Source: an uncultured Candidatus Saccharibacteria bacterium
Lineage (GTDB): Bacteria; Patescibacteriota; WWE3; 2-01-FULL-39-13
DNA length: 64,000 nucleotides
Reading direction: 5' to 3'
Assembly (NCBI GenBank): GCA_965230915.1
Contig: OZ246395.1
Span: forward strand, 792,935-856,934
In this document: positions 19,906 through 39,402 of the stretch, piece after piece
Layout of the letters: the number at the start of each line of letters is the position of its first letter
Numbering within the stretch: position 1 is the first letter of the stretch
Position numbers and translations under genes: made by a program
Notes under the pieces: model-generated
Seen by the model: the letters and a program-made list of their open reading frames with translations, nothing else
The model's database searches: none
Told to the model about the DNA's origin: nothing

Positions 19906-19962
19906 TTGTACTTACCTTTCTAAGGGTCTCCCCTTCATACCACTCTCTCGATAAAAAACGGG

Positions 19963-21594: not shown

Positions 21595-21607
21595 CTTAAG
21601 AATTATA

Positions 21608-22870: not shown

Positions 22871-22954
22871 ATTTATGGTTTAGCAGGGTTTTATTTAGAA
22901 TTCTAATTTTAAGGTTTCGATTATTTTTGAAATCCAAATCTTAAAGATAGAATG

Positions 22955-23030
22955 CCCGGGCGGAGAAAGTTGAAAAAGTTTTGATATGCTAAAAAACGCA
23001 TGTCTAGTTTTTCCAAAATTCTCGCCCGGA
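22955..23030. terminator. Composite hairpin (CCCGGGCGGAGAA / TTCTCGCCCGG) enclosing GATATGCT-A6-CGCATGTC, 23 nt after the stop of the 23053 gene
   Basis: Seen in the sequence. The minus strand is U-rich after the stem. Confidence 0.45.
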
Positions 23031-23052
23031 CGGCATCTATGGTTGTACTACG

Positions 23053-23730: not shown

Positions 23731-23926
23731 TGTAGTAAATCCTCTCTTGAAATGGTTTTAGACAAAACAGTACTGCATAAAAACCTCCATATAATGAAGC
23801 TCTTAACGCAGACTGCTTTGACCCACTTAAAAAAGTATCCATAGATATTTAATGTGCGAATATCCAATGAACGATTTGCTCTTTGGATAGTTTAAATTTC
23901 CCTGATATACAGCGAAACTTGAACTA

Positions 23927-24000
23927 CTACCTCAGGATTGTTGTTTTTTCTTATGCTCGCGCATATGAGAAGCTTTAGGCTTCCAACAACCCTGAGGGTA
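23927..24000. terminator. Composite hairpin (CCTCAGGATTGTTG / CAACAACCCTGAGG) enclosing a TTATGCTCGCGCATATGAG inner palindrome and a GAAGC-TTTAG-GCTTC mini-hairpin
   Basis: 11 nt after the stop of gene 24009..25715. Seen in the sequence. Confidence 0.45.
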
Positions 24001-24008
24001 AACCATAT

Positions 24009-25715
24009 TTAGTTGTTAACTACAGCCAAAGGCAGAAAGACGTAGTCTTTCGGCTGATTGGGCTTGAAATTCGGATCGACAACCTGCAGCATAACGCCGC
24101 ATTGCACGTCTCCTGCGGGAGATGTGATTGTGATGTTTGGCGCGTAAGCGGCCTTGCCAGTGTTCGTATCCCACGAGTAATCATGCGTGACGACTCCGTA
24201 ATCAATGCTGCCATTGATGGTCTCGATACGATACGGATCGCCCTGTCCGAAGTTGAGATAATGACTCACTTTCGAACCCTGCATAAGCTGATAGGCGTTG
24301 GCCCATTCGAGCTTGAACTGGAACCGATTAAACGGGTCACCTTCAAGGTGGCGGGCTTCCAACTTGCAAGTCGGCTCAGGCAACTCTTCGTCCATAACGA
24401 CTGCGACTTCACAATTGCGACCCGTGGTCTCGGCGACGATAAACAGCGTCGAGGTATAAACCTTGCCAGGTTCATACGGGTAGGTAAATGTGAAGCTACC
24501 TGTGCCACTGATGGCCGAGGTGATCGTGATGAACTTTGGATCGATCATGCTCTGACCGGAATACAGACTGTGATAATCGGCATCGGGCGAAGCGCCATCC
24601 CAAGAGTAGTCGAAGCGATACGTGACCGGGTCGATCTTTTGGGAAGTCATCGTGCATGTCGCGGGGCTTTCGGTGTCGACGCTTACGACAACCGACTCAT
24701 TCGATTCAACCGGATAAGGGCTGAACCAACTACGCGAAAACACTGTTACTGTTTGGACATCCTGCTTGTTAATACGGAAAGAGACATTGCGTGTTCCAGG
24801 CGTACAAGACAAACCTGTGACCGGCGCGCTCATCGGTTGGGGCTGGCACTCTGATGGATAATCGCTGAATGGCATTCCGCCTGCTGTTATCAGCATTGAG
24901 TTTGCGCCTTCAGGGGCCATCACGGTGACATTGACCAAATCCATGTAGCGGTAAGAACCGGCTTGAACCTGAATGACTGGCTTCGGCACTCGGCACTTTG
25001 GCGCGAGAATGTCTTGCGTCCAAACCACTGTGTTCGTTGAGTCCGAAATCGTTAAGGTGGTTGTTACTAACCCCGTCTCGATAAAATAGGCCTCAACATA
25101 GTTGCCAAACATATTCCCTTCTTCGGGTCCGTCCAACTGCCACTGAAAAATGCCTTGGTGGTTGCCCGCCAGGCCGTTGCAATTGGTGTTGACGAAAGCC
25201 GTATACACGCCAGTGTCGCGAATCTGATATTCCCAGTCCCATTGTGTGGAACTGTTCTGGATCGGATTCACGCCGACGTAAAACGGGGGCCGCACGTCGA
25301 TAGTCACGGGGAAGGTGTAATCCAATCCACCGAAATTATCGTAGTTTAGCCCAGCCTGATATAACGTAAGACCCGCGCCGTAAGCATAGCCGTGAGTAAA
25401 CTGCGGGCTGTCGCCATCGGTGTTCAGATACACGTCAAAAAAGGCTCCATCGCCGAACTCAAAGTTGTGGTATCCAGCTTCAGGAATGGGAGGACAATCC
25501 AATTCCCAACGGAAAACGTTGGGTTCTTGAATGACCTCTTGGTTGTTCACGCATTCGACCCCAGCGGCCTTAGCCGCAAACGGAATGCAAAAAGCGCCAA
25601 ACAAACCTGCTGCAAAAACCAACATCTTGATCAAATTGCGATACATCAGAATCTCTCTTTCTTCATACATTGTTAACAAAATTGGCCGAGCTAAATCTTC
25701 AATATAAAGATCCAA
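24009..25715 (-). CDS. Secreted multi-domain protein with PKD-like repeats
   Basis: The true start is probably the internal Met near 25643 (MYRNLIKMLVFAAG..., a signal peptide preceded by AAAGAGAGA). Its C-terminal domain (CKLEARHLEGDPFN...FGQGD...THDYSWD) is homologous to the C-terminal domain of 27825..28937. Confidence 0.5.
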   Translation of the reverse strand: MDLYIEDLARPILLTMYEEREILMYRNLIKMLVFAAGLFGAFCIPFAAKAAGVECVNNQEVIQEPNVFRWELDCPPIPEAGYHNFEFGDGAFFDVYLNTDGDSPQFTHGYAYGAGLTLYQAGLNYDNFGGLDYTFPVTIDVRPPFYVGVNPIQNSSTQWDWEYQIRDTGVYTAFVNTNCNGLAGNHQGIFQWQLDGPEEGNMFGNYVEAYFIETGLVTTTLTISDSTNTVVWTQDILAPKCRVPKPVIQVQAGSYRYMDLVNVTVMAPEGANSMLITAGGMPFSDYPSECQPQPMSAPVTGLSCTPGTRNVSFRINKQDVQTVTVFSRSWFSPYPVESNESVVVSVDTESPATCTMTSQKIDPVTYRFDYSWDGASPDADYHSLYSGQSMIDPKFITITSAISGTGSFTFTYPYEPGKVYTSTLFIVAETTGRNCEVAVVMDEELPEPTCKLEARHLEGDPFNRFQFKLEWANAYQLMQGSKVSHYLNFGQGDPYRIETINGSIDYGVVTHDYSWDTNTGKAAYAPNITITSPAGDVQCGVMLQVVDPNFKPNQPKDYVFLPLAVVNN

Positions 25716-25875
25716 GTCTTATTTCGACCAATTTTAAATATGGTGCATGTCAAAAACTGAACGCTAGTTTCTGCAAAAGAAAATTTGTTCTAGTTTTCGA
25801 TCATTATTTAAATGTTCTTTTCTATTCAACTTTTATAGATCACCTGATTGTTAACCTGTAAAAATTGAAAAGCTT

Positions 25876-25948
25876 GTCCGGTGGAGTTGATTGTGTTTGA
25901 TATGCTTGCGCATAAAAGTCGAAAATCGACCAATCAACCCCTCCGGAC
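25876..25948. terminator. Long-stem terminator (18-bp arms GTCCGGTGGAGTTGATTG / CAATCAACCCCTCCGGAC) enclosing TTGATATGCTTGCGCATAAAAG and a GTCGA-AAA-TCGAC mini-hairpin
   Basis: 10 nt after the stop of 25962..27185. Minus-strand AAGCUUUUCAAUUUUU follows. Confidence 0.55.
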
Positions 25949-25961
25949 TGTGTGCATTTAG

Positions 25962-27185
25962 CTAGTTGCGCTTGAACGTTGCTCCATACGGGGCGTAAAT
26001 TAGCTGCCCTGTCGGAACTGCAACATTCAGGTCTCCACCATGGTGGAACTCGTTTTCGGTAAAGATCCCGTCGGCGCTGACATACAAGTCAGAATTCGAA
26101 AGAAGATTCTCATTCGTCTTGCATACCGTTCCGGCTGCCATGAACGGACCGCCAATGAAATCGGCACAGTTCAAAGGGTTCCCTTCGAAAGTGAAGATCA
26201 CGGCGGGGCCGGATTCTACCGCTGCTTGCGGAATGAACGTCTTTACCTTTGGCGCGGTTGGCGTCGCACTTGGTGTCGGCGTCGCGCTCGGGGCGGGAGT
26301 CTGCGTAGCAGGCTCATGCTCGATAACGAAGCTTGCACCATATGGCGCGTAAACCCAAACCGGACCTGAGAATTCTCCACCCTTCGAGTGAAATTCGTCT
26401 TCGAAGAAAATCTTGTCATCACTGACGTATACATCACTGTCAGTGCTGACTGTGACCCCTTCGGGAACGAAACAAACCTTACCAACCTCAAGCTGAGTCG
26501 AAACATACAAACGGCAATCGGAAGCGCCTTCCCCTTCGAACGTATAGATCGGAGTTGGCGTTGGCTCAACTGTGTTTGTAGGTTCAACCGTGCTGGTCGG
26601 TTCGACAGTCTGTGTGACGGTCGATGTCGGCTCGGGCGTCGTGCTCGGAGTAGCCGTAACAGTAACCGTTGCGGTCGCTGTCATTGTCGGAGACTCTGTC
26701 GGTACAGGCGTAGAACTCGGCGTCGGACTTTGTGTCGGGGTTTCTGTTACGGGAGGAATGTCAGTCGGTGTTACCGATGAAGTTGCTGTCGGCGTTGGCG
26801 TCGACTTGCGGTCATCAATAACAATCTGAAATGTATCCTCTAGAACAACATTCCCAGGCACCCAATCCAAACCAATGGTGTATGTAATTACCCCATTAGG
26901 CACGTAGGCGTATGCATGCTGAACGCTTGCATCACCTTCCGCATTGAATCGTAAATCCACCTTCTGACCGTCCCCAAAATATAACGTGCGGTAGTGGTCT
27001 TCTTCCTTTGTGGGGGTTGGGACCAAATTCGAACAATTAAAATTGAAGCGATACTGATTAGGTGGGACTTCCACCGGCTTTTGAACCTGACAGTCAGGGG
27101 TATTGTCCGCGGCGGATGCCGTGGCATAACCACCAAATACTGCAGATAAAACCAATGCGCTTGTAATCAAAGCCTTGCGTAACAT
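25962..27185 (-). CDS. Secreted protein with a PKD-like N-domain, a Thr/Pro-rich linker and two tandem ~80-aa C-terminal repeats
   Basis: 407 aa with a signal peptide and YFGDG...HAYAY. Internal repeat: IYTFEGEG...VYAPYGASF versus IFTFEGNP...IYAPYGATF. SD GAAGGAGAG. Confidence 0.55.
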   Translation of the reverse strand: MLRKALITSALVLSAVFGGYATASAADNTPDCQVQKPVEVPPNQYRFNFNCSNLVPTPTKEEDHYRTLYFGDGQKVDLRFNAEGDASVQHAYAYVPNGVITYTIGLDWVPGNVVLEDTFQIVIDDRKSTPTPTATSSVTPTDIPPVTETPTQSPTPSSTPVPTESPTMTATATVTVTATPSTTPEPTSTVTQTVEPTSTVEPTNTVEPTPTPIYTFEGEGASDCRLYVSTQLEVGKVCFVPEGVTVSTDSDVYVSDDKIFFEDEFHSKGGEFSGPVWVYAPYGASFVIEHEPATQTPAPSATPTPSATPTAPKVKTFIPQAAVESGPAVIFTFEGNPLNCADFIGGPFMAAGTVCKTNENLLSNSDLYVSADGIFTENEFHHGGDLNVAVPTGQLIYAPYGATFKRN

Positions 27186-27440
27186 GATTTCTCTCCTTCA
27201 TACGATAGGCCCAAGTCGGGCATAATACATAGATAACAAAATTAGCCAAATAGAGCCTTCGCCCCGTGGACATTTGGGGATAAAAATCAAAGGCTCAACA
27301 TGGCTAACTTTGCCGTGGAGAGAATGTAGCTAAATGCACGTATGACGTGTACTTGGAAAAAGAAATCCCGCGAAGGGAAATGATTTCGCTGTACTTTCAT
27401 ACTATATTAAGGAACTCTATCTCGGGTTAATTCCTTTGAT

Positions 27441-27550
27441 AGTTGAAGAGATTCCCATCCTGCCCAGTTGGAAATCTGCTTCAATCAGCAAACGAATCAA
27501 CGAATAGTTGAAGGGTTTCTCGTCCTGCCCAGTCGAGAAACCGCTTCAAG
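27441..27550. ncRNA. Tandem pair of hairpins with an identical 11-nt loop (TCCTGCCCAGT) and covarying stems; candidate structured RNA or leader element
   Basis: Hairpin 1 (27441-27485): AGTTGAAGAGATTCC...GGAAATCTGCTTCAAT. Hairpin 2 (27506-27550): AGTTGAAGGGTTTCTCG...CGAGAAACCGCTTCAAG. The outer helix is identical, the inner helix differs with compensatory changes, and both have a bulged G at the same position. Confidence 0.5.
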
Positions 27551-27685
27551 CATCCGTCGAACGAACTGCATATTATATATTAAAAAGGAGATTTTTGGCA
27601 GGAAACATTACTGCCTATAGTTAAAAGTTAGGCAAGTAAAGAGAGTGATTAACTCGGGATCCTGTCCATGTATCCCTTTCTTAAT

Positions 27686-27735
27686 CTGGCGATATTATAC
27701 AATTTTCAAACCCCAATGTCAATTGCTATAGGGTA
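27686..27735 (-). promoter_or_regulatory. Consensus promoter TTGACA-17-TATAAT on the minus strand, with an ATACCCTATAG motif directly upstream of the -35
   Basis: -35 at 27716-27721, -10 at 27693-27698, CTATAG at 27725-27730. Transcription from here would run through the tandem hairpins toward gene 25962..27185. Confidence 0.55.
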
Positions 27736-27753
27736 TTGGTAAGCCAAAAGAAA

Positions 27754-27812
27754 AGCCCGGGCTGTTTTTGATCTTTGAGATCTAGAAGCTTTTTGGCTTC
27801 AAACAGTCCGGG
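27754..27812. terminator. Terminator of gene 27825..28937 (stem GCCCGGGCTGTTTTTG / CAAACAGTCCGGGC with a large structured loop and a minus-strand U-tract)
   Basis: 15 nt after the stop codon. Seen in the sequence. Confidence 0.55.
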
Positions 27813-27824
27813 CTAAAACATAAG

Positions 27825-28937
27825 CTAGTTGCGAGAAACTACTCTGGGAACCCACAATTCGAGCTTAGGCCTGTTGGCGGGATGATTCGGGTCAACAATG
27901 TCGACGATTGCCGTACAAACCTTTGGCCCGAAGTCGGAATCGGATGGAACCGTTAATCTCGCCGTATACTGCGCTTTACCGGTTTCTACGTCCCAGGCAT
28001 ATTCGTGCCAAAGCGGCCCGAAATCGATAGCACCTTTGGGGCCGACGTGAAGGTTTTGATCTTCTCCTCCATCGCCGTAGTTAATGGTCGCCATATCAGT
28101 CGCGGCAAACCACGTAACCTGAAATTCCCAATAATTAAATGGAGCGCCTTCTGGATGCCGCGCTTCGAGTGTGCATTCAGGTTCATCACCAGGCTGCCCA
28201 CCCCACGACGGGTCAAGAACGGTAATCTGCTTTTGGCAAATTGCTGGGTCCTGCCCTTGCCGCCCAGGAACCACAACCGTTGCGGTATATACCGAATACC
28301 CACGGAAAACATCCCACGGATAATCGTGGTAGTACTCGCCCCATTCATAATCCGCATTTGGATAACGGATTCCCTCTGCCAGATTCGGACCAGGAGTGTC
28401 ATCTCCCAAATCAAGAAATGGGACACTCCCGTAGGCATTTGTCCAACCAATCTTAAAATCAAAGTGGTTGAACTTATCGCCCTCTCGAACTTCAAATTTG
28501 CAAGTTGGCTCACCGAACGACTTCTGGGTAGTGACTATGGCCTGGCAGGTCGCCGTTTCATTCTCGCCGTACACATACATAGTCGCCGTATAAAGCGTGT
28601 TTGTGATGTACGGGTACGTGTAAGTTACGACGCCGTTCCCAGAGACCCCTGGAACCTCGTACCACGGATAGTAGTCATAAGGGTTTCCAAAGTCGATCGA
28701 GTTGTTATTGTCGGCTTTACCCCCGCTCCACGTATAGGTAAACTGGAAGCGAAAATCCTGAACATCCTTAGCGACAAGCGTGCACTTCGTTTCACTCGCC
28801 CCTGTTGATTGGGCCGCAACATCGGGCTTTTGCACACTAGCATGACTCGGGACTTGGACACAGGCAACAAGCAAAAACAGATAGCCGATTGCTGTAAACA
28901 TGCTGAACAAAAATAACCTAGCAGCACGTCTCTTCAT
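27825..28937 (-). CDS. Secreted protein with tandem PKD-like domains
   Basis: 370 aa with a signal peptide. Motifs YGDGGEDQ...HEYAWDVETGKAQYTARLTV match the PKD consensus. Paralogous to 24009..25715. Confidence 0.55.
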   Translation of the reverse strand: MKRRAARLFLFSMFTAIGYLFLLVACVQVPSHASVQKPDVAAQSTGASETKCTLVAKDVQDFRFQFTYTWSGGKADNNNSIDFGNPYDYYPWYEVPGVSGNGVVTYTYPYITNTLYTATMYVYGENETATCQAIVTTQKSFGEPTCKFEVREGDKFNHFDFKIGWTNAYGSVPFLDLGDDTPGPNLAEGIRYPNADYEWGEYYHDYPWDVFRGYSVYTATVVVPGRQGQDPAICQKQITVLDPSWGGQPGDEPECTLEARHPEGAPFNYWEFQVTWFAATDMATINYGDGGEDQNLHVGPKGAIDFGPLWHEYAWDVETGKAQYTARLTVPSDSDFGPKVCTAIVDIVDPNHPANRPKLELWVPRVVSRN

Positions 28938-29136
28938 CGAAATCCTCTCTTTCTACGAGAAATTTAAGGGAAACAGTTATTTATTGATTTATTCAATGTA
29001 CAAGCATTTAGCTTATAAGCGCATATCATATATCAACCTATAGAAATAATCTATATTTTTATAGGATATCTAAGTTATTTTCTTTAATCTTTTTATAGAT
29101 CATATCGCATTAAAGATCGCCCACTATCCCATAGCG

Positions 29137-29165
29137 TTGACGACTACCCGGTTGAGTTGTAAAAT
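29137..29165 (+). promoter_or_regulatory. Sigma70-like promoter TTGACG-17-TAAAAT for gene 29202
   Basis: Seen in the sequence, and preceded by CCCATAGCG. Confidence 0.5.
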
Positions 29166-29201
29166 AGTAATAATTATTTTTCCTGCTCAGAAACTAAAAA
29201 T

Positions 29202-29963
29202 ATGCAACTTTCTAACATTCTAAAAGTAGGTGCCATAGTAATAAGTGGAATCGCTCTAGCCTTTTTGGCAGGATATGTTATTTTCTCTTATTTCAATAGA
29301 GACGCAGGAATTCAACAAAGCACAACCGTAGCTAATACTCCAGTTAATGTAGAAAGCGATAGTGAAGGCATTTCAGACCAACAAGGCGAAGTTGCAGGAG
29401 TATCTACAGACGATACGAATGGCATAACCACAACTGGAAACACCAATCAGACAACATCTAAACCAGCAGTTTCTGACCCAGATGGAGACGGCATAACTCC
29501 CAGTACCACTGCACCAGCAGCGATTACAGTAACAGAAGAAGACCGCAGAATTTATAGAGACACACACAGAAACGATGAAATTACCTATGTTGAGGCCGAT
29601 GACGGTAACGACGACTCAGAAATAACTTTGAGCCCTACTCCAGAGGTAAATGAAGAAGACGATTACTTCGAATACGTATATACCTTCGAATTTAACAACG
29701 ACGCACAAGATAGATATGAAGATGGATTCACCTATTCTATCGACGGCCAAAGCTGTGATGATTCAGATTTCTTTACTAGCGATAAATACGATTTTAAAGG
29801 AAAAATCGAAGCTGACGATATAGACGATGAAGTTACTATCAAAGTAAGAATCAAAGACGAATATATTGATGATTCTAACGATTTCGAAGATTCATCGTAT
29901 AAATTTGATGGAAAAAACTACACTGTTAAAGGCGATATAAATGTGCCTCAGTGCGAGAATTAA
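29202..29963 (+). CDS. N-terminally anchored, highly acidic surface or extracytoplasmic protein
   Basis: 253 aa with a TM anchor and D/E-rich low-complexity sequence. No family recognised. Confidence 0.45.
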   Translation: MQLSNILKVGAIVISGIALAFLAGYVIFSYFNRDAGIQQSTTVANTPVNVESDSEGISDQQGEVAGVSTDDTNGITTTGNTNQTTSKPAVSDPDGDGITPSTTAPAAITVTEEDRRIYRDTHRNDEITYVEADDGNDDSEITLSPTPEVNEEDDYFEYVYTFEFNNDAQDRYEDGFTYSIDGQSCDDSDFFTSDKYDFKGKIEADDIDDEVTIKVRIKDEYIDDSNDFEDSSYKFDGKNYTVKGDINVPQCEN

Positions 29964-30590: not shown

Positions 30591-32279
30591 ATGCTGTGCT
30601 ACTATTCCACTAGTATGTCTTCTTATAGTTGGAATCTTCTTCACAAATCTAAAATCGAAAACATTTCGGAACTCGAAAGTATCCTGTTAAAAAATCGTGA
30701 AATCGAAGATACTGAAAAATTCCTTAATCCTACTCCACCGAATAAATTATTAGACGAAAATCCGCAATTAAAAGAAAAATTCCTGATCGCAAAAAAAATA
30801 ATTTTGGACGCAATTGAAAAAGAGCTTCCAATAATTATTCACGGTGATTATGATGTAGATGGCCAAACGGCGACTGCGATTTTATGGCGAACAATTTACA
30901 ACGACTTGCAGTATAAAAATGTTTTTCCGTATATTCCAAATCGTTTTGATGAAGGTTATGGAGTTTCACTCGAAAGTTTGAAAGGCATTCGCAAATTACT
31001 GCAAGAAAAAAATTTTGCAGAGAATTGTGAGGCGCTTTTAATAACTGTTGATTGTGGAATTACTTCGAATAAAGAAATTGCATATGCACGCGAAAATAAT
31101 TTTCAAGTTGTGTTAACCGATCATCACCATGCATCAGAAAATTTGCCAGATGCAAATATTGTTGTTCACACCGACAAAGCAACTGGTGCTGGAATTTCAT
31201 GGTTATTATCAAACCAATTAAATGAAACAGAAGATAAATATTTAGAACTTGCGGCACTCGGAACAATTTGTGATTTACAACCTCTCGTTGGTATTAATCG
31301 TTCAATTGCAAAATATGGAATTAACAAACTAAATAATTCCGATTTAGCATTTGTTGAAGCAATAAAAGAGTCAGCTGCAATTACTACACGATTAGATACT
31401 TATGAAATTGGTTGGGTAATTGGCCCGCGTTTGAATGCAACGGGCCGTTTAGAAAGTGCAATGGATTCATTGCGTTTGCTTTGTAGCGATTCCCCTACTC
31501 AAGCAAAAGATTTAGCAAATCAGTTAACTGAAATAAATAAAACGCGTCAAAATCAAACTGAAGCGAATTTATTAAACGCAATTTCAGAGTTTAAAGATGT
31601 CGAGGCAACAGCGATTCCAAATTTTATTGTTACTTCTAACGAGAATTATCACGAAGGAGTTATAGGTTTGGTTGCTGGAAAATTAGTACAAACTTATTAC
31701 CGCCCTGCTATTGCGATTTCAATTTCAAAAGATGGCAAAGCCAAAGGTTCCGCACGTTCAATTAAAGGAATTTCAATCGTCGAAACTTTAAAACAACTTG
31801 AGCATTTATTTATAAATGTTGGCGGACACGACATGGCCGCAGGATTTTCGATTGAAACACAAAATATAGAAAAATTAAAAGATGAACTTGCAAAAGTTGA
31901 AGTTGTAAAATCCGATGAAGTTTTTACAAAACAAATTGATATCGATGCAGAAATTTCGCACAATTTAATTTCATTTGAAACTTTTGATGAACTTCAAAAT
32001 TTAAAACCATTTGGAATGGGAAACGCCGAACCAGTTTTTCTGATAAAGAATATGAAAGTTTTTAATATAAGTATTTTTGGTAAAGAAAATTCACACATTA
32101 AATTTTTTGTTACAGATGAAAATGGCGAAGAGTATTCTGCTTTGGCGTTTAGTCGTCGTGATTTACAGGAAGCTGCAAATATCGGAGACAAGATTGATGT
32201 TGTTGCAACACTTTCGAAAAATGTTTGGAATGGAAAGACTTCGTTGGAACTTAAAGTGAAGGATGTGAAAGAAAGTTAA
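30591..32279 (+). CDS. recJ: Single-stranded-DNA-specific exonuclease RecJ (the start is probably at 30615)
   Basis: DHH motifs (IIIHGDYDVDGQTA, VVLTDHHH) and a DHHA1 GGH motif (NVGGHDMAAG). Confidence 0.85.
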   Translation: MLCYYSTSMSSYSWNLLHKSKIENISELESILLKNREIEDTEKFLNPTPPNKLLDENPQLKEKFLIAKKIILDAIEKELPIIIHGDYDVDGQTATAILWRTIYNDLQYKNVFPYIPNRFDEGYGVSLESLKGIRKLLQEKNFAENCEALLITVDCGITSNKEIAYARENNFQVVLTDHHHASENLPDANIVVHTDKATGAGISWLLSNQLNETEDKYLELAALGTICDLQPLVGINRSIAKYGINKLNNSDLAFVEAIKESAAITTRLDTYEIGWVIGPRLNATGRLESAMDSLRLLCSDSPTQAKDLANQLTEINKTRQNQTEANLLNAISEFKDVEATAIPNFIVTSNENYHEGVIGLVAGKLVQTYYRPAIAISISKDGKAKGSARSIKGISIVETLKQLEHLFINVGGHDMAAGFSIETQNIEKLKDELAKVEVVKSDEVFTKQIDIDAEISHNLISFETFDELQNLKPFGMGNAEPVFLIKNMKVFNISIFGKENSHIKFFVTDENGEEYSALAFSRRDLQEAANIGDKIDVVATLSKNVWNGKTSLELKVKDVKES

Positions 32280-32353
32280 AAAAGCACCCTACGAAAGTAG
32301 AAAATAAATTCCTAAATTCGTAGGGTTCGACACTGCGCTTTAGCGTTTACTTA

Positions 32354-32494
32354 TGCGTGCTTTATGAGCACATAGACAAGCATGCCTGCGACAATCACCA
32401 ACTCGGCAATGCAAAACCACAAGCCAACGTTGGTCTCAACCTCAATTTCGTGAATCTGGTTGAGAGCTTTGCGTCTCATCCACTGATACATGTG
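32354..32494 (-). CDS. Possible 46-aa single-TM micro-protein (MYQWMRRKALNQIHEIEVETNVGLWFCIAELVIVAGMLVYVLIKHA)
   Basis: I translated this from the minus strand by hand. It is not in the ORF track because it is under 60 aa. It lies 25 nt downstream of 32520..32963 in the same high-GC patch. Confidence 0.25.
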
Positions 32495-32519
32495 GCAGCT
32501 CCCTTTCCTTATGGCTGCT

Positions 32520-32963
32520 TTACTTTCGTAAATTACTCAGATAAAGCTCGGGCGCTTCACCTGCCTCCACGCGAAATGGTTTTTCACCATCCCAGCCGCA
32601 ATGCCATGCACCGCCTTCGTCCGGAAGCTCATACAACACTACGGGCCAATAGTTGCTGAACCCCTCCTTCTGGCTGGGCCAATATTTGTGCATGATGCGC
32701 AAAGTTTCGTCGTCCGGAATCGCAAAGACAGGAGTACCGTCGCCTGGGTCAAACCATGCGTGGGCGACGTCTTTAGTCTGGATTAGAAACTCAACTTCGC
32801 TCGGGTCTTCCAAGCTTGGCTCTATGACTTCTTCGAGCACGGCAACAAGACAGTGATCATCATTGCCCGCCAGCGCAGTCGCAGTCTGAGCAAAAAATGG
32901 TGTTACTACCAAACTCACGGCTGTAGCAATTCCAAAAACAGCGTTCAAAATACCCTTAGACAT
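32520..32963 (-). CDS. Small secreted protein in a high-GC patch
   Basis: 147 aa with a signal peptide. The promoter TTGACT-17-TACAAT is on the minus strand (-35 at 33038-33043, -10 at 33015-33020). Confidence 0.45.
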   Translation of the reverse strand: MSKGILNAVFGIATAVSLVVTPFFAQTATALAGNDDHCLVAVLEEVIEPSLEDPSEVEFLIQTKDVAHAWFDPGDGTPVFAIPDDETLRIMHKYWPSQKEGFSNYWPVVLYELPDEGGAWHCGWDGEKPFRVEAGEAPELYLSNLRK

Positions 32964-33073
32964 TTCTTAATCCTCTCTTCATACAGTTTATTGGGTTGGT
33001 ATAGAACGGGCGTAATTGTAGGGTTTAAAATACTATAAGTCAACCGCTAACGGGCTTTTTGTAGATTGCTCTA

Positions 33074-33700
33074 TTAGTCGATAAAGTGAATCGACTTTCT
33101 TATGTTCTCGGCATTTTCATTTTCAGCATATTCAACCACGATCCATTTATCGGTCGATGGAGACTGCATTAAATAAATTTTATTTACCCCAGTTGTCGGA
33201 CCAGATTTAACTTCATATGCTGCCATATAAGCATCTTTTGTACCTTCAATTTTAACTTTCTCTGGTTCATTCACAAAATCGCCACCCATACTTGGATCCA
33301 TTTCATCTAATTTTAATTGGATAAACTGAATCGGATTATCAATTTCAACTGGCTTATAAATTACCAAAGCAGAAAATTCCTGACCTACCCGAGGTTCAAC
33401 GGCCATAATATAGTGGTCGCCATTATCTTGAATAAAATAACCAGGATGCATAAAGTAATAACCTTCACCATCGACTTGTTCCCAATCTTTGTAAACTGCG
33501 AGGTCGGCTGGAAGTTCTTCGCCCTCTGCAAGTTCGATTTCTTCTTCGTTATTTGTATTTTGAGATTCTGTTTCTTGCATCGATCCGCCAAATTCAGAAT
33601 CGATTGGTTGCTGCATTTTGTTGCGAGCATTCATGTAATATAAGATGCCGGAGATTCCAGCTATTAGGACTATTATGAGGAGCAGGTTAATTGTTTTCAT
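33074..33700 (-). CDS. N-terminally anchored extracytoplasmic protein, unknown function
   Basis: 208 aa with one TM segment and native low-GC composition. Confidence 0.45.
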   Translation of the reverse strand: MKTINLLLIIVLIAGISGILYYMNARNKMQQPIDSEFGGSMQETESQNTNNEEEIELAEGEELPADLAVYKDWEQVDGEGYYFMHPGYFIQDNGDHYIMAVEPRVGQEFSALVIYKPVEIDNPIQFIQLKLDEMDPSMGGDFVNEPEKVKIEGTKDAYMAAYEVKSGPTTGVNKIYLMQSPSTDKWIVVEYAENENAENIRKSIHFID

Positions 33701-33792
33701 GCCCTCATCCTACATGGATAATTTGAATGAGTAAACCCTAAAACTAAACCATATATACAAGTACAAATATTTTAACTATTATTAAATTTAAG

Positions 33793-34203
33793 ATGAGTGC
33801 TGATCTGGCTGAACATGAACTCCCCTTTCTAGCAAAATGGCCTAAATGGCTTCGATGGCTTTTATTCCTACCATTAGGAATTATTTCTGGTATGTTAGGA
33901 TCAGCCTTTATTCATCTAACACAATGGTTTATGGGCTTTGGTAGCGAGACTCCATATGTAGTTTTTCTAAGTAATGGAGCTTTTGGATATGTCTTCTTAT
34001 ATGTCTCTTCTATAATGGCTCCTAAAAATCATTTTACCGTATCAATAATTTTATTTGCGTTATCTTGCATACTATATGGGATATCATTCCTAAGCATATT
34101 AAATGGTAACTACGCAGTTAGTATTATAGTTGACTCATTAGGTCTTATAGGAGCCCTTTTAGGCTCAGGCATTGTAGTTTATTCTTTAAAAGAAAGTGAA
34201 TAA
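33793..34203 (+). CDS. Small 4-TM membrane protein
   Basis: 136 aa hydrophobic ORF. Confidence 0.4.
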   Translation: MSADLAEHELPFLAKWPKWLRWLLFLPLGIISGMLGSAFIHLTQWFMGFGSETPYVVFLSNGAFGYVFLYVSSIMAPKNHFTVSIILFALSCILYGISFLSILNGNYAVSIIVDSLGLIGALLGSGIVVYSLKESE

Positions 34204-34220
34204 ACTTTTATCATACCTGC

Positions 34221-34345
34221 TATAATTTCCCTATAGCAATGATCCTTATGACACGGGGGAGCTAGTTCGAAAACTGAGACATAAGCTGCTTCGGGCTAAC
34301 AGCCGAAGAAGCGAGGTGGCACCGCGCAATTTAGCGTCCTCGCAA
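34221..34345 (+). promoter_or_regulatory. Candidate T-box leader (Asp specifier) upstream of aspS
   Basis: A TATAAT box at 34221-34226. A Stem-I-like helix CTTATG...CATAAG has GAC-A at the specifier position (34278-34281). A strong hairpin at 34286-34313 follows, then the T-box sequence AGCGAGGTGGCACCGCG at 34310-34326. This folds as a canonical antiterminator: A1 GAGG/CCUC, 7-nt bulge UGGCACC, A2 GCGC-AAUUUA-GCGU. I could not find a clear downstream terminator or SD sequestrator. Confidence 0.45.
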
Positions 34346-34432
34346 GTTTATCAATTTACTTGATAATCATGCGAAGAAAGGCTTGGCCACAACCTATTCC
34401 ACTTCTCAGAGATTATCCAAAACAAGTTATTT

Positions 34433-35722
34433 ATGGAACGAACACACATAAAAGATGTTCCAACAATGGTCGGTGAGACCGTAAAAATATCTGGCTTCGT
34501 ACACGCCATTCGAAACCAGGGCAGTATCAAGTTTATTATTTTGCGCGATGTGACCGGGCTTATACAGTCGGTCATTTTAAAGAGCTCCCCTGCTTTTGCA
34601 GTGGTCGATGAACTTTCGCTAGAATCAGTCATCGAAATTGAAGGCTTGGCTAAAGCTGAAAAACAGGCTCCTGGAGGGTTCGAAATTGAAGCTCAGAATA
34701 TAAATATTCTTTCAAAAGCTGCGCCCGAACTCCCTATTCCAGTTGTTACTGAAAAAGGTGGAGAGGAAACCAACCAGCCACAAAGATTAGATTATCGCTG
34801 GATCGATTTGCGAAAACCTGAAAATACAAAGATTTTTAAAGTTTGGACTGCGCTTGAAAGAGGAGCACGCGATTATTTTTTGAACAATGGATTCATTCAA
34901 TTTTATTCTCCGGCATTAATGAATGCGGCATCCGAAGGTGGATCTGAATTTTTTACTGTAAATTATTTTGATAGAAAAGCATATCTATCTCAGTCTCCAC
35001 AATTTTACAAACAAATGGCGATGGCTGCCGGCTTTGAAAAAGTTTTTGCAGTAGGGCCAGTTTTTAGAGCTGAACCATCTTTTACTACTCGTCATATGAC
35101 TGAATTTACCGGCTGGGACTTTGAAATCAGCTATGTAAATTCTCATCACGATGTTATGGATGCCGAAGAAGGAATGTTAGTCGAAGGTTTTAAAGCATTA
35201 AAAGAAACTGAAATGCCAGATTTGGAAATTCCTAGTCGTCCTTTTCCGAGATTAACAATGGTCGAAGCTAAAAAGAAATTAGCCGAAGCTGGAATTAAAT
35301 CTGAAAAAGAACACGACCTTTCACCAGAAGAAGAAAGAGAAATTTGCCGAATCGTAAAAGAAGAAACAGCTAGTGATTTTGTTTTTGTAACCGATTACCA
35401 TATTTCGATTCGACCTTTCTATCATATGCGACACGCTGATATGCCTGATCGTACAAAGAGCTTTGACCTTTTATATAAAGGTATTGAAATTACAACCGGT
35501 GCTCAACGAGAACATCGCGTTGGAATTTTAGAAAAACAGGCGGTTGAAAAAGGCGTCGAACTTGAAAGTATCAAAGAGTACATTAACTTCTTTAGATTTG
35601 GAATGCCTCCACATGGAGGTGGTGGTATAGGACCTGGAAGAATTGTTATGCAGCTTTTAGATTTGGCGAATATTCGCGAAGCGACTTTCTTGCCAAGAGA
35701 TGTTAAGAGATTGACACCTTGA
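34433..35722 (+). CDS. aspS: Aspartyl-tRNA synthetase, archaeal/eukaryal short type (possibly non-discriminating)
   Basis: 429 aa with an N-terminal OB anticodon-binding domain. Class II motif 2 (FRAEPSFTTRHMTEF) and motif 3 (GGGGIGPGRIVM) are present. The bacterial GAD insertion is absent. Confidence 0.85.
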   Translation: MERTHIKDVPTMVGETVKISGFVHAIRNQGSIKFIILRDVTGLIQSVILKSSPAFAVVDELSLESVIEIEGLAKAEKQAPGGFEIEAQNINILSKAAPELPIPVVTEKGGEETNQPQRLDYRWIDLRKPENTKIFKVWTALERGARDYFLNNGFIQFYSPALMNAASEGGSEFFTVNYFDRKAYLSQSPQFYKQMAMAAGFEKVFAVGPVFRAEPSFTTRHMTEFTGWDFEISYVNSHHDVMDAEEGMLVEGFKALKETEMPDLEIPSRPFPRLTMVEAKKKLAEAGIKSEKEHDLSPEEEREICRIVKEETASDFVFVTDYHISIRPFYHMRHADMPDRTKSFDLLYKGIEITTGAQREHRVGILEKQAVEKGVELESIKEYINFFRFGMPPHGGGGIGPGRIVMQLLDLANIREATFLPRDVKRLTP

Positions 35723-35729
35723 TTTTTGA

Positions 35730-35784
35730 GCAAGGATTTTTTATGCGGTTAGCCATGCTGCTAACAAGCGTAAAAAATCCTTGC
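35730..35784. terminator. Nested bidirectional terminator (14-bp outer stem GCAAGGATTTTTTA/TAAAAAATCCTTGC enclosing a TTAGC/GCTAA inner hairpin)
   Basis: Between convergent aspS and the cupredoxin gene. Seen in the sequence. Confidence 0.6.
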
Positions 35785-35825
35785 GAAAACCCTGGCTAAC
35801 CACGCAAAAAACTTTGTTCAAAGAA

Positions 35826-36218
35826 TTATTTGTCTGTAACGATCACACTCCCCTTCATATTTGGATGAAGGCTACAAGTGTAAGTAAAAGATCCAACCTT
35901 ATTAAAAGTTAATATTTTTGATTCACCGGGATTTAATATTCCTGTATACCAACTGCTATCATCAGAAGTCGCACTATGCTGAACCGAATCATTGTTTGTC
36001 CATTTTATAGTTTGTCCAACCTTAATTGTTACCACCGATGGGCCAAAAGCAAAATTTTGAATGTTTACGTCAGCGTCAGCTTTTTGCTCGACCTGCTCTG
36101 ACTGCGAATTATTTTGTTCTACATTACTCGAAGACATTTGAGGCCTCATTTTAAAATACCAATATCCTGCTCCACCTAAAACTATTAACAAAATTAGAAC
36201 AATAAGCAATTTATTCAT
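35826..36218 (-). CDS. Membrane-anchored type-1 blue copper protein (amicyanin/plastocyanin-like cupredoxin)
   Basis: 130 aa. The C-terminal copper site CSLHPNM matches the amicyanin C-x2-H-x2-M spacing, with an upstream His at VQHSAT. Confidence 0.7.
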   Translation of the reverse strand: MNKLLIVLILLIVLGGAGYWYFKMRPQMSSSNVEQNNSQSEQVEQKADADVNIQNFAFGPSVVTIKVGQTIKWTNNDSVQHSATSDDSSWYTGILNPGESKILTFNKVGSFTYTCSLHPNMKGSVIVTDK

Positions 36219-36304
36219 AGTTTCATTTTATGCATTCATTCACAAAGGTCAAATGAACTTGCAATTTATTTCGGTTCAAATATACTTAACTAAGTTAAAT
36301 AACT

Positions 36305-36778
36305 TTGTTAATGAATTATATGGATCAAGATCAGACCTTAAGAATGCATAATTTAGGAATAATTCAAGGATACTCATATCGAGTTCTAGAAAATCATTTA
36401 GGCATCTTACTTAAAAAATATAATTTGCTAATTCCTGAATGGAAATTACTCGGGCTCATATTCGAAAACCCCAATTTAAAAATCACCCAACTCGCAAGCC
36501 AACTAAAAGTAGAAATTCCATTTATAACCCGTCTTGTAAATTCACTTACAAAAAAGCAAATGGTAAAAAAAGTGACACGCAACAAAGATTTACGAATACA
36601 GCTAGTTGAACTTACAGAAGAAACAAAAGTATTATTGCCTAAACTAGAAATCGAAGTCGGGATATTAATGAGAAATTTATTAGAAGGAATAACTTCGGAA
36701 GAACGAAGCGCATACATGAATGTATTACAAACTGTTATTAATAATGCAAAAAAAATAGAAAGATCAGAAGAACTTTAA
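36305..36778 (+). CDS. MarR-family transcriptional regulator
   Basis: 157 aa with a central wHTH ([28 protein letters not shown]). Confidence 0.7.
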
Positions 36779-36824
36779 AGCCATACTAAGTGTAATAAAT
36801 TTTATTTTAGGAGGTGATATACAA

Positions 36825-37502
36825 GTGAAAAAAGGAAACACAACAATGTACATTGTAATCGGAGTTGTTGCAGTTGCAGTTATAGCTCTTCTATTTATGA
36901 GAAACAATAATTCAGCAATGAAAGATAATTCAGATTCAATGAAGTCAGATGATTCAGCAATGATGAACGACGACTCTATGAATGATGATTCAATGATGGA
37001 TGATTCAATGATGGACGATTCGAGTTCAGATAATTCAAATAATAATATGGAAAATGGCGTAATGGTTGGAGGAGCAATGATGACTCCAGATAAAGATATA
37101 GTCGATAATGCTGTAAATTCTAATGACCATACAACTTTAGTTGCAGCTGTTAAGGCCGCAGGTTTAGTTGATACATTAAAGGGAGATGGACCATTTACGG
37201 TTTTTGCTCCAACAAATGATGCGTTTAACAAACTTCCTGCTGGTACTGTAGAAGATTTAGTTAAGCCAGAAAATAAAGATATGTTAACTAAAATTCTTAC
37301 TTACCATGTAGTATCTGGAAGATATACATCAGATATGTTGAAAGATGGAATGCAGTTAAAAACTGTTGAAGGAGAAATGCTAACTTTCAATGAGAAAGAT
37401 GGCCAGTGGTGGATTAATGGATCAGCAATGATCACAACCGCTGATGTAATTTCTAGCAATGGAGTTACATACGTAATAGATACTGTTTTGATGCCTAAGT
37501 AA
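36825..37502 (+). CDS. Membrane-anchored fasciclin (FAS1) domain protein with an N-terminal DDSMM low-complexity repeat
   Basis: FAS1 core [21 protein letters not shown]...LTYHVVSG. Confidence 0.8.
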
Positions 37503-37673
37503 CGCCTTCGCTAACGCTACGGCTATCTTTTTTGACTATATCCTTCAGATAAATCAAAAAAGTAATTCCTTGGCTAACGCGAAATAAGTTAGGTAATACA
37601 GCTGGCTCTTCTGCAGGAGAGCTGGCTAAGTGCGTGATTAAAATTCCCAAACTAACGTTATAATCTATTAGTT

Positions 37674-38141
37674 ATGAACCTCACTGAAAGAATTGTTGAT
37701 TTTTTAACCAAAAATAAAGTTGAATACAAACTTTCTCACCATGAAGCCGTTCGCACAAGCGAAGAGGCGGCAAGGGTACGCGGGAATAAACCTGAAGAAG
37801 GCGCAAAGGCGTTGGTTTTTTGGGCCGATAGCTCACCTGTTCAAATTGTTATTCAAGGAAATTTAAAAGTCGACAAAGAAAAATTCAAAAATTTATTCGG
37901 TTTTAGTAAATTAAAAATGGTTTCTGCCGAAGAATTAAAACAAGTTAGTTCTGTTGAACCGGGGGCTGTTCCTCCATTTGGAAATCTTTTCGAGCCACCG
38001 ATAAAAGTGTTCTGCAACGAAGGATTTAGTGATACCATTGAATTTAATGCCGGTGACCACCGCATAAGTATCCAGATGAAATATAAAGATTGGCTGGATC
38101 TAGTAAATCCTAGTATTGGTGACTATGGAGAAAGAGCATAA
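37674..38141 (+). CDS. YbaK/ProX-type aminoacyl-tRNA deacylase domain protein
   Basis: 155 aa with the GAVPPFG motif. A TATAAT box lies 9-11 nt before the ATG, so the leader is short. Confidence 0.65.
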   Translation: MNLTERIVDFLTKNKVEYKLSHHEAVRTSEEAARVRGNKPEEGAKALVFWADSSPVQIVIQGNLKVDKEKFKNLFGFSKLKMVSAEELKQVSSVEPGAVPPFGNLFEPPIKVFCNEGFSDTIEFNAGDHRISIQMKYKDWLDLVNPSIGDYGERA

Positions 38142-39402
38142 AAGCAAACATAAAGTCCACAAAGTAAAAAAAGAAAATCAATTTTCTGAAGCTTCTACCG
38201 AACAACCGCATGAGAAACCTGTACCCGAGGTAACCCCGCAAATTCAAGAAGTTCATACTGAAAGAATCATAAAGGAGAAAAGCTCTACTGTTCCGATTTC
38301 TGCAACCGAAACTAAAACAGAGACTTTAAGTGTTAAAGAAGAAACAAGCACAGTTCACCATTCACCTAATACTTCGGAACTGGGGCAATTTCCTAAAAAG
38401 TCAAAAGATAAGATAAAGAAAAAAGATCAATTTGTAATACCTTTTTATATTTTTGTACTAGTACTTTTTACTCTATCTTTTGCTATTGGAGGACTGGCAG
38501 CAAAATTTATTCCCAATAATGCATTTGATGCGCTAAAAAGCTTGAATAAGATTTATAAAAACGAACCGGTAGCTGAAGTAGTTGAAGAAGCTACAGTTTC
38601 ATCCATACCAGTTGAACCAATAAATGAAATTGAACCACCTAGAATTTTACAAACTCAACCGCCAGAAATAAGCGCTAAGGCATATGGAATTTACACCTTC
38701 GAAAAAGGCGAATATAAAAAAATGACAGACAAGAATCCTGACGTTATGCTGCCAATGGCATCAGTAACAAAAGTTATGACTGCACTTGTTGCATTAGAAA
38801 ATTATGATTTAGATAAACCGGTTGTAATTCCGGCAAATTGCGTTGGTATAAACGCGAGTAGCGTTGGATTCAGACCAAACGATGTTCTGTCACTTCAAGA
38901 CGTTTTATATGGACTTCTAGTTAAATCAGGTGCAGATGCAGCCTGTGCAATTGCAAACATTGATAACGAAGCTGACTTTATTACAAAAATGAATCAAAAA
39001 GCTGCTGAACTTGGAATGACCAACACCAAATTTACAAATGCGATTGGGTTAGATAATAGTGATGCACATGTTTCAGATATTAACGATTTGAAAATTTTAG
39101 TTACGGCGGCACTAAAATATGGGTCGTTCAGAAAAATTGTTGGAACCGAAGACATTACAATAACTTCTAAATCGACCGGCGCCAGATACAATGTCCGTAA
39201 TACAAATGATTTATTATTCTCGATTCCAGGGACTGTCGGTATTAAAACTGGCTTCACGGACAGTGCAGGAGAATGCCTCGCCTATTTATATCAGAACAAA
39301 GATCAGGAAATATTAATTATTGTTTTGGGGTCGGCTGACCGATTCGGAGATACTTCGAAACTTTTGAATTGGGCTAAAGCTGAACTTTCAGAACAGAATT
39401 AG
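38116..39402 (+). CDS. D-alanyl-D-alanine carboxypeptidase (S11/PBP5 family) with a long disordered N-terminal region and a TM anchor
   Basis: SxxK (ASVTK), an SxN-like motif (KSGAD) and KTG (IKTGFT). Confidence 0.75.
   Translation: MVTMEKEHKSKHKVHKVKKENQFSEASTEQPHEKPVPEVTPQIQEVHTERIIKEKSSTVPISATETKTETLSVKEETSTVHHSPNTSELGQFPKKSKDKIKKKDQFVIPFYIFVLVLFTLSFAIGGLAAKFIPNNAFDALKSLNKIYKNEPVAEVVEEATVSSIPVEPINEIEPPRILQTQPPEISAKAYGIYTFEKGEYKKMTDKNPDVMLPMASVTKVMTALVALENYDLDKPVVIPANCVGINASSVGFRPNDVLSLQDVLYGLLVKSGADAACAIANIDNEADFITKMNQKAAELGMTNTKFTNAIGLDNSDAHVSDINDLKILVTAALKYGSFRKIVGTEDITITSKSTGARYNVRNTNDLLFSIPGTVGIKTGFTDSAGECLAYLYQNKDQEILIIVLGSADRFGDTSKLLNWAKAELSEQN

Follow-up and report, generated by a model that had tools for sequence, protein, structure and literature searches.

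T-box riboswitches have been surveyed in Firmicutes, Actinobacteria, Chloroflexi, Deinococcus-Thermus and a few Proteobacteria (PMC2494555). A compact, translational class (class II) is found in actinobacterial ileS leaders, for example of Mycobacterium and Nocardia (reportedly described by Sherwood et al., 2015), in which the kink-turn (K-turn) is kept, the distal part of Stem I is gone and the specifier lies near the top of a short Stem I (PMC7583486, PMC7778990). Here we analyze the leader of aspS, the gene for an aspartyl-tRNA synthetase (AspRS), in a window of 64,000 nucleotides (nt) from contig OZ246395.1 of an uncultured Candidatus Saccharibacteria bacterium (assembly GCA_965230915.1, positions 792,935 to 856,934, forward strand); all positions given below count from the first nucleotide of this window. 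Comparison with 29 other aspS leaders indicates that it is very likely a working T-box riboswitch, one that responds to uncharged tRNA-Asp and regulates the gene for the non-discriminating AspRS of a Patescibacteria bacterium.

Like the ileS class, the aspS leader combines an ultrashort Stem I on a K-turn with Stem III and a discriminator with a 7-nt bulge, and it is probably bistable; most members of its family (L021, L040, L164, L165 and others, the L numbers denoting the loci compared) also keep Stem II with its S-turn and the IIA/B pseudoknot. Unlike the ileS class, the family belongs to the phylum Patescibacteria, precedes aspS, carries its specifier in a terminal loop of 6-9 nt and has no sequestrator of a Shine-Dalgarno (SD) sequence. 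Most relatives, moreover, join the ultrashort Stem I to a canonical intrinsic terminator, a combination treated as atypical in the account of the ileS class (PMC7583486), and the window and its relative L081 are without Stem II and IIA/B. With the transcriptional T-boxes of Firmicutes (RF00230; Bacillus subtilis tyrS and glyQS) the element shares the T-box sequence, the UGGN bulge, a specifier followed by a purine, the K-turn, a Stem III flanked by AA, and a competitor that draws the antiterminator's 3' strand into another helix. It differs from them in lacking about 74 nt of Stem I, in the absence of a U-tract after the competitor and in having an extra helix, P2. The glyQS leader is also without Stem II but keeps a long Stem I, whereas the window has neither. 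The element is best regarded as a divergent T-box lineage whose nearest neighbor in form is the actinobacterial ultrashort-Stem-I class.

Two further systems bear on the biology of this leader. In Clostridium acetobutylicum, genes for tRNA-dependent asparagine formation are reportedly preceded by a T-box with an Asn specifier (Saad et al., JBC, 2012; PNAS, 2013), a long-Stem-I Firmicute T-box with a terminator. The aspS leaders would likewise apply T-box logic to the indirect Asn-tRNA pathway; unlike the clostridial element, they precede a single gene, aspS, and their specifier changes between Asp and Asn from one close relative to another (GAC in the window, AAC in L081). The leaders of Salmonella mgtA and E. 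coli ribB are reportedly Rho-dependent riboswitches (Hollands et al., 2012), in which one conformer exposes an unstructured C-rich tract and no intrinsic terminator is present; the output proposed below for the window would be of this kind. No T-box is known to act through Rho. The T-box database TBDB sought class II T-boxes only in Actinobacteria (PMC7778990), and our literature search, whose coverage was incomplete so that an earlier description is possible, returned no paper linking a T-box or riboswitch with Patescibacteria, the candidate phyla radiation (CPR) or Saccharibacteria.

T-box elements precede aspS in Patescibacteria

The aspS leader had been singled out by an earlier reading of the DNA, made without database searches (hereafter the sequence-only reading), as a candidate Asp T-box. 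Nucleotides 34315-34326 (GGUGGCACCGCG) are an exact T-box core, and 34313-34326 (GAGGUGGCACCGCG) correspond to the longer conserved T-box sequence (AGGGUGGNACCGCG-like). When both strands of the 64 kb were searched, the exact 12-mer GGTGGNACCGCG was found once, against 0.02 occurrences expected from shuffled sequences; with one mismatch allowed the expectation rises to 0.24, and 23 of 100 shuffles contain the 12-mer. The match to the consensus and the fold into A1, a 7-nt bulge and A2 were all found where that reading had placed them, and the A1 helix that it gave as GAGG/CCUC is present but two pairs longer (GCGAGG/CCUCGC).

At gathering thresholds, no Rfam family matched anywhere in the window or in the loci of 11 relatives. 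In E-value mode, RF00230 was the top match both for the region (28.5 bits, E = 1.1e-4) and for the whole window (29.4 bits, E = 0.012); in its alignment only Stem III and the T-box helix have high posterior probability, and 18 nt take the place of 80 model positions of Stem I. Thus the Rfam scan that had been proposed as a check did return the T-box family as the best match, but far below the gathering score, and it did not settle the question cleanly. Taken alone, the match is suggestive, not decisive, of a T-box. The relatives score 29-58 bits (at best 58.4 bits, E = 4e-10), and their alignments run over the full model: K-turn, Stem II S-turn, IIA, Stem III and T-box helix are all aligned, and the deletion is confined to about 74 nt of distal Stem I. 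The RF00230 cutoff is too strict for this lineage.

The evidence that carries the assignment is comparative. We compared 168 loci (about 0.9 Mb; 80 from genomes, 80 from metagenomes and 8 of close relatives), first with a motif scan and then with a covariance model, R1, built from 23 discriminator domains. The element precedes aspS in 12 of the 59 best genome loci, in 10 of the 80 metagenome loci, where AspRS is at most 66% identical to that of the window, and in all 7 distinct close relatives. In each of these 29 Patescibacteria leaders it is on the coding strand, just upstream of aspS. Seven aspS leaders outside the training set were matched by R1, with the variant bulges UGGCAAC, UGGCACA and UGGUAUC; the window, which belonged to the training set, scored 45.2 bits. 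The exact core occurs 20 times in the 168 loci, always on the coding strand, 19 times upstream of aspS and once upstream of a ThrRS-like gene. R1 found no match in the archaeal, Chloroflexi, Actinobacteria or Bacillota loci (L060-L080), and no T-box was found in the leader of L001, whose AspRS is 70% identical to that of the window.

The discriminator helices covary. Across 23 leaders, 92% of the A1/A2 cells are paired, against 41-53% in slid controls; both partners vary in 9 of the 11 pairs, and the observed covariation score was not equalled in any of 500 shuffles. We take the comparative evidence to be decisive for T-box identity: because the same element, with covarying helices, stands in 29 other aspS leaders, the leader of the window should be a real T-box. 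The occurrence upstream of the ThrRS-like gene is of a second type (GGGUGGAACCGCG; L042, positions 3-140, Patescibacteria metagenome-assembled genome (MAG) JBAYNC010000005), with A as the variable base of the bulge and a canonical terminator, and Patescibacteria T-boxes are therefore not confined to aspS.

The protein encoded downstream scores 478 bits against NF003483 (cutoff 353) and 402 bits against TIGR00458. Its homologues at 59-88% identity are all from Patescibacteria, and the best genome matches are CPR MAGs at 59-70%; placed by these AspRS homologues, the host is a Patescibacteria/CPR bacterium. A T-box before a short archaeal-type aspS had been expected to constrain the lineage of the organism. 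That expectation leads in the wrong direction; the host lies outside the classical T-box phyla (PMC2494555). The predicted elements of the leader are collected in Table 1.

Table 1. Positions of the aspS leader elements and of the flanking genes in the window.
Feature	Position	Strand	Description
Intergenic region	34204-34432		between a 136-aa open reading frame (ORF) without family match and a 429-aa ORF
Putative extended -10 promoter	34218-34226	+	TGcTATAAT, read from the sequence; start of transcription inferred at about 34233-34236
Ultrashort Stem I	34236-34262	+	GC 34236-37, AAU, K-turn GA 34241-42, stem UCCU 34243-46
Stem I terminal loop	34247-54	+	UAUGACAC, 8 nt; specifier GAC 34250-52, conserved A 34253
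Stem I 3' side	34255-62	+	stem GGGG 34255-58, GA 34259-60, GC 34261-62
Linker in place of Stem II and IIA/B	34263-34288	+	26 nt; ACAUAAGCUG common to L081
Stem III	34289-34310	+	CUUCGG 34289-94, loop GCUAACAG, CCGAAG 34303-08, conserved AA flank 34309-10
T-box discriminator (antiterminator-type helix)	34311-34343	+	A1 GCGAGG 34311-16/CCUCGC 34338-43
Discriminator bulge	34317-23	+	UGGCACC, 7 nt; UGGC complementary to tRNA 3' end GCCA
A2	34324-27/34334-37	+	GCGC/GCGU, loop AAUUUA
P1, competitor helix (terminator analogue)	34337-34377	+	5' strand U-CCUCGC-AAGUUUAUCAA 34337-54; loop UUUAC; 3' strand UUGAUAAUCAUGCGAAGA 34360-77
P2, second alternative helix	34360-34419	+	GAUAAUC 34362-68/GAUUAUC 34411-17; GAAG 34373-76/CUUC 34402-05
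C-rich, G-poor tract and A-rich pre-start region	34378-34432	+	14 C and 7 G in 55 nt
aspS	34433-35722	+	429-aa archaeal-type non-discriminating AspRS; gene predicted to be under control of the leader

A specifier hairpin on a K-turn matches tRNA-Asp or tRNA-Asn

A common layout of Stem I, RGC-NN-UGA-(N)-4-5 bp stem-[6-9 nt loop with (G/A)AC-A]-stem-(N)GAG-C, was found in 19 leaders with 14 distinct stems. Since the search required paired stems, the figure of 100% pairing is circular; what is informative is the diversity of the stems at a fixed position and the invariant context of the loop. At the sequence level, UGA and GAG flank the stem in all 19 leaders, and Rfam aligns both to its K-turn columns. 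The long Stem I, with its internal specifier loop, AG bulge and distal loop, is missing from the window and from all relatives (about 74-80 model positions deleted). The sequence-only reading had seen a GAC-A at the specifier position of a Stem-I-like helix. The GAC-A is there, at 34250-34253, but the helix favored by folding, UCCCU 34228-32/GGGGA, is not the conserved one and lies upstream of the likely start of transcription, and we rejected it. GAC is instead placed in the terminal loop of a predicted 4-bp hairpin above the K-turn, an arrangement resembling an anticodon loop. The -10 box from which this transcript would start is 100% conserved in L081, and TATAAT stands at the same place in L164, L165, L167 and L168.

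The specifier codon is GAC in 13 leaders and AAC in 9, with no other codon found, and it is always followed by A. This fits a non-discriminating AspRS that would charge both tRNA-Asp and tRNA-Asn. The window has GAC, and the five nearest relatives with a complete 5' end (L081, L164, L165/166, L167 and L168) have AAC. Most leaders have C as the variable base of the bulge, and a few (L031, L083 and L127) have U. tRNA-Asp carries G73, with which this C would pair, as had been suggested for tRNA-Asp and tRNA-Asn, and G73 was indeed found in one Patescibacteria tRNA-Asn: a MAG labelled Saccharibacteria (L055, a locus without T-box in the R1 scan) holds a gene for tRNA-Asn(GUU), at 124-195 and some 210 nt before aspS, that has U1-A72 and G73 and does not encode CCA. 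Sensing of tRNA-Asp by the window leader is well supported, and the original proposal of an Asp T-box before an archaeal-type AspRS is borne out by the covariation, the specifier, the recurrent K-turn hairpin and the NF003483 match. Downstream GCCA/ACCA sequences were considered as a mimic in cis of the tRNA 3' end and rejected; they occur in the window, L081 and L083 and not in L082, L164 or L165.

Between Stem I and Stem III, most leaders carry Stem II with an S-turn (GGGAAG...AGUAGAACCC) and a IIA/B pseudoknot, whose IIA loop and IIB covary by eye (UAGC/GCUA, GAGC/GCUC, ACGC/GCGU). The S-turn (AGUAGAA) and the CGGG..CCCGUAACAGC motif are present in L164, L165, L167, L168, L021, L040 and others and are absent from the leaders of the window and L081. 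These two, whose AspRS proteins are 86% identical, have a linker of 21-26 nt and neither Stem II nor IIA/B; L018 is also without both, apparently by an independent loss. In short-Stem-I ileS T-boxes, Stem II and the pseudoknot are needed for tRNA binding, and their deletion costs about 1,200-fold (PMC7583486, PMC10651847). If the leader of the window functions as proposed, its decoding module would be smaller than any described one that we found in the literature. Stem III of L081, UCCCGA-UUCU-UCGGGA, is a perfect hairpin through compensatory changes, at 40% identity to that of the window, and the AA flank of the window fits the RRRxG-StemIII-AA rule (PMC11404447). In L164 (1340-1390) and L168 (830-875), there is apparently no Stem III hairpin between IIA/B and A1, where by eye we see only about 15 nt (..AAUAAAGACCCAAG..).

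Two predicted alternative helices and no U-run follow the antiterminator

Outside the clade of the window, the relatives, L015 perhaps excepted, carry canonical intrinsic terminators: in 17 of 20 parsed leaders, the 8 nt behind the competitor segment include 6-7 U, and U-runs were seen by eye in L030, L085 and L136 and in the unparsed leaders L050 and L127. The clade itself, defined by AspRS identity of at least 72%, has eight members (the window, L081, L082, L083, L164, L165/166, L167 and L168), and none of the eight reaches 6 U in 8 nt after the competitor helix; the window has 2. The sequence-only reading had been unable to identify a competing terminator. It was right that no terminator with a U-run is present, but a competing helix does exist. 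The 5' strand of this helix, P1, takes in the whole 3' strand of A1, and its 15 pairs over 18 positions fold alone to -15.9 kcal/mol. In 6 of the 8 clade members the outer part, CCUCGC with a GCGAG-like sequence, recurs at a constant distance of +25-30 nt. P1 and P2 were tested by comparing duplexes with shuffled sequences, as the AU-rich helices are out of register between subgroups in the MAFFT alignment; by this test L081, L082, L083 and L165 show significant outer pairing of P1 (p <= 0.024).

The second helix, P2, excludes P1 and is compatible with the antiterminator. Its duplex in the window has -12.6 kcal/mol, against -5.3 +/- 1.5 in shuffles (p = 0.002). L081 forms it with a different sequence (GGUAAUCUA/UAGAUCACC and GAAGG/CCUUC; p = 0.001), and L082, L083 and L165 (CUAGCGAGAAUU/AAUUCUUCUAG) give p = 0.012-0.035, so that P2 is significant in 5 of the 8 members; it is not significant in L164 (p = 0.25) or L168 (p = 0.11). 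The 3' strand of P2 ends 9-14 nt before the AUG in the seven parsed members (L167 excluded), at 14 nt in the window. P1 leaves the tract at 34378-34432 unpaired, and formation of P2 brings most of it into pairs: in the window, the probability of being unpaired over -30..-10 drops from 0.74 to 0.41 when the 3' strand of A1 is withheld, and the tract goes from open to paired in the tRNA-bound state in 4 of the 8 members.

Three other candidates in this part of the leader were rejected. A pairing of the 5' half of the T-box with a downstream pyrimidine tract (GAGGUGG/CCACUUC), part of the minimum free energy (MFE) fold of the window, is significant in none of the 8 members (p = 0.11-0.92). An ATG at 34369, considered as the start of a regulatory upstream ORF, is out of frame and absent in L081. 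Finally, a search for an internal promoter just before aspS found no convincing -10 box at leaderless distance.

A proposed relay from tRNA binding to aspS mRNA

Folding and comparison suggest the following scheme. Transcription would begin a few bases after the TGnTATAAT promoter, and the terminal loop of the K-turn hairpin would offer U-GAC-A to the tRNA anticodon GUC while the UGGC of the bulge pairs with a free 3' end, G73-C-C-A. By analogy with the established T-box mechanism, uncharged tRNA would stabilize A1/A2 and charged tRNA could not. The leader can be read as a relay of four segments, in which the antiterminator (1:2) and P2 (3:4) would coexist and P1 (2:3) would exclude both, so that it would toggle between antiterminator plus P2 and P1 plus an open C-rich tract. 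Since the polymerase reaches the 3' strand of P2 only after P1 and meets no U-run behind P1, the choice between the folds is probably thermodynamic and bistable, made after the polymerase has passed, and not the race of classical intrinsic termination. In the tRNA-bound state, P2 would hide the C-rich tract. In the weakest step of the scheme, the P1 state would open the tract to Rho or an RNase and leave less full-length aspS mRNA.

Such an output, termination or decay dependent on a factor, is suggested by polarity and base composition, and we put it forward tentatively, at rather less than even confidence; we favor it because its polarity is right and because it makes use of P2. More doubtful still, though possible, is the full picture of a minimal T-box, reduced to a specifier hairpin on a K-turn and a discriminator, that relays to a Rho or RNase step, an output that would have arisen in a lineage with hardly any SDs or U-tract terminators left, within a wider Patescibacteria T-box lineage in which an ultrashort Stem I is joined to ordinary terminators and the specifier switches between tRNA-Asp and tRNA-Asn.

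A number of observations weigh against this scheme. With respect to the sensor, the RF00230 score of 28.5-29.4 bits compares with a gathering score of 93, folding of the single sequence is unremarkable (z = -0.32; z = -2.25) and does not recover Stem I, and Stem I of the window consists of two G-C and two G-U pairs only. Stem II and the pseudoknot, reported to be essential in short-Stem-I T-boxes, are both missing, and the tRNA-Asp of the host itself is not among the genes of the 64 kb. With respect to the switch, the outer pairing of P1 has p = 0.33 in the window alone and is absent from L167 and L168. The antiterminator and alternative folds are nearly iso-energetic (-34.1 vs -35.7 kcal/mol), and the antiterminator is already the MFE structure in L081 and L167, so that a switch is not thermodynamically evident. 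With respect to the output, the window contains no rho, nus or RNase genes, and a literature search on Rho and intrinsic terminators in Patescibacteria found nothing relevant.

Attenuation and translational control as alternative outputs

The same sensor might instead drive ordinary attenuation, with P1 acting as a hairpin-only (I-shaped) terminator or one assisted by NusA or NusG, in a lineage that would have mostly dispensed with U-tracts, and with P2 as an incidental helix. P1 resembles, in position and sequence, the stems that form the terminators of L018, L031, L092 and L002, from which it differs by the missing U-run, and as the off state it has the right polarity. Sites with a hairpin and a U-run are not enriched in the window (18 against 13.7 +/- 4.1 expected; 15 against 14.3 +/- 4.4), and a subgroup of the clade has semi-U-rich tails (for example AAUUUUAUA). 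A long, near-perfect hairpin with no U-run on either strand (GCAAGGAUUUUUUAUGCGG...CGUAAAAAAUCCUUGC, 35731-35786) also follows the stop codon of aspS, between this gene and a convergent cupredoxin gene, and may itself be a bidirectional hairpin-only terminator. Against attenuation stand the 2 U in 8 nt after P1 in the window, the two members without outer P1 pairing and, above all, P2, whose conservation, compensatory changes and fixed distance to the AUG are left unexplained and which a kinetic decision cannot use, its 3' strand being made later. We consider attenuation possible but rather unlikely.

Control of translation, as in actinobacterial ileS, in which the switch would alter the access of ribosomes to an SD-less start, appears less probable again. 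It has in its favor that the ultrashort Stem I has so far been tied to translational, bistable T-boxes (PMC7583486), that no terminator U-run is present, that the two folds have nearly equal energies and that the 3' strand of P2 ends at a constant short distance from the AUG. Sequestration of an SD was rejected as its mechanism. As the sequence-only reading had remarked, there is no clear SD: neither GGAG nor GAGG precedes the ATG at 34433. This is normal for the host, in which SDs are hardly used: GGAG or GAGG is found upstream of 5 of 55 ORFs of the window, against a background of 4.4%. Many ORFs have instead a TATAAT-like box 5-12 nt before the start codon (for example 37674-38141, 50677-51975, 52177-52869 and 20290-21594), a proximity of TATAAT to ATG that suggests widespread leaderless mRNAs. 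Occlusion of the start codon by the freed strand of P2 (P3) was rejected as well, since no member shows significant pairing of this strand with the start region (p = 0.23-0.90) and constrained folding shows the AUG and +4..+16 equally accessible in both states. Moreover, the tRNA-bound state is the more paired one over -30..-10, which is the wrong polarity for a synthetase gene. The non-canonical output that had been suspected from the leader therefore stands as far as the missing U-run is concerned, which holds for the whole clade, but its suggested form, simple translational occlusion, is unsupported.

A separate feature of the start region, common to 8 of 8 clade members, is a potential pairing between the start codon and the His codon of a conserved HIKD motif (34427-34459 in the window; UUUAUG/CAUAAA in the window, AUAUGAA/UUCAUAU in L164 and L165). 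This hairpin over the AUG is weak and unchanged between the switch states, and AU-rich sequence together with a conserved peptide may be enough to account for it.

Selection on the leader

The leader might, finally, be a decaying or locked-on relic, in a clade that has lost the terminator and in two members that have lost Stem II and IIA/B, and simply be transcribed through. The disappearance of Stem II, IIA/B and the U-run is in keeping with this, as are the weak Stem I, the antiterminator that is the MFE structure without ligand in L081 and L167, and the lack of any T-box in L001 at 70% AspRS identity. The comparison of the window with L081 speaks otherwise. Fourfold synonymous sites of aspS are 50% identical between the two. 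In the leader, identity is 100% in the -10 box, 97% in the discriminator (antiterminator), 86% in the pre-AUG tract, 71-76% in P1, 75% in the Stem I domain, 72% in the 3' strand of P2 and 69% in the linker; it is 40% in Stem III and 38% in the spacer at 34378-34401, which evolves neutrally. This pattern argues against a relic, as do the conservation of P1 and P2 above neutral, the pairing of Stem III kept through wholesale compensatory change and the specifier loop, which keeps its U-RAC-A context while AAC and GAC interchange between the window and L081. The core is also invariant in all 8 clade members, down to 72% AspRS identity. We therefore regard a relic as very unlikely.

That an AT-rich intergenic region resembles the T-box consensus by chance, for which the sub-threshold Rfam score, the 12-mers found in shuffles at one mismatch and the unexceptional single-sequence fold might be cited, is of negligible probability and is effectively refuted by the comparative data, namely the rarity of the exact 12-mer and the recurrence of the same element, with position and strand unchanged, in 29 further aspS leaders whose helices covary and whose specifiers match.

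Implications for T-box diversity

With a functional T-box in the window, the range of these textbook regulators of Firmicutes and Actinobacteria (PMC2494555) would take in the candidate phyla radiation, whose T-boxes go unnoticed in standard Rfam annotation. The joining of an ultrashort Stem I to terminators in the relatives challenges the rule that transcriptional T-boxes need a long, elbow-binding Stem I (PMC7583486). The window and L081 raise the question of what minimum of RNA can read both the identity and the charging of a tRNA, which would be useful for structural work and for small tRNA sensors. The flips of the specifier between Asp and Asn on one non-discriminating AspRS gene offer a natural experiment on the monitoring of the indirect Asn-tRNA pathway. 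The terminator-less relay, if correct, may show how an expression platform is rebuilt in lineages with few SDs, probably leaderless mRNAs and few U-tract terminators.

Gene context and other features of the window

The order of genes around aspS at 30591-39402 (recJ, small ORFs, aspS, ..., a YbaK-like tRNA_edit gene and Peptidase_S11) is common to L082, L083, L164, L165 and the contig of P0002, the closest AspRS relative (88% identity). Specific to the window is an insert 3' of aspS with cupredoxin, MarR and fasciclin genes. Further upstream, 18772-29963 holds seven consecutive minus-strand ORFs (225-568 aa) and one plus-strand ORF, and 13498-17196 (minus strand) a single ORF of 1232 aa; none of these has a Pfam match at E <= 1e-5. 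The block at 18772-29963 has a GC content of 41-48%, against about 35% elsewhere in the window. An SD-like GAGAGGA, rare in the window, stands upstream of three ORFs of the block (starts 23730, 27185 and 28937) and of the ORF at 32520-32963 just outside it. The block could be foreign or lineage-specific DNA. At 12630-12841 (minus strand), a weak Rfam match to CsrC, with 21.4 bits (E = 0.025) where the gathering score is 61, is most likely due to chance.

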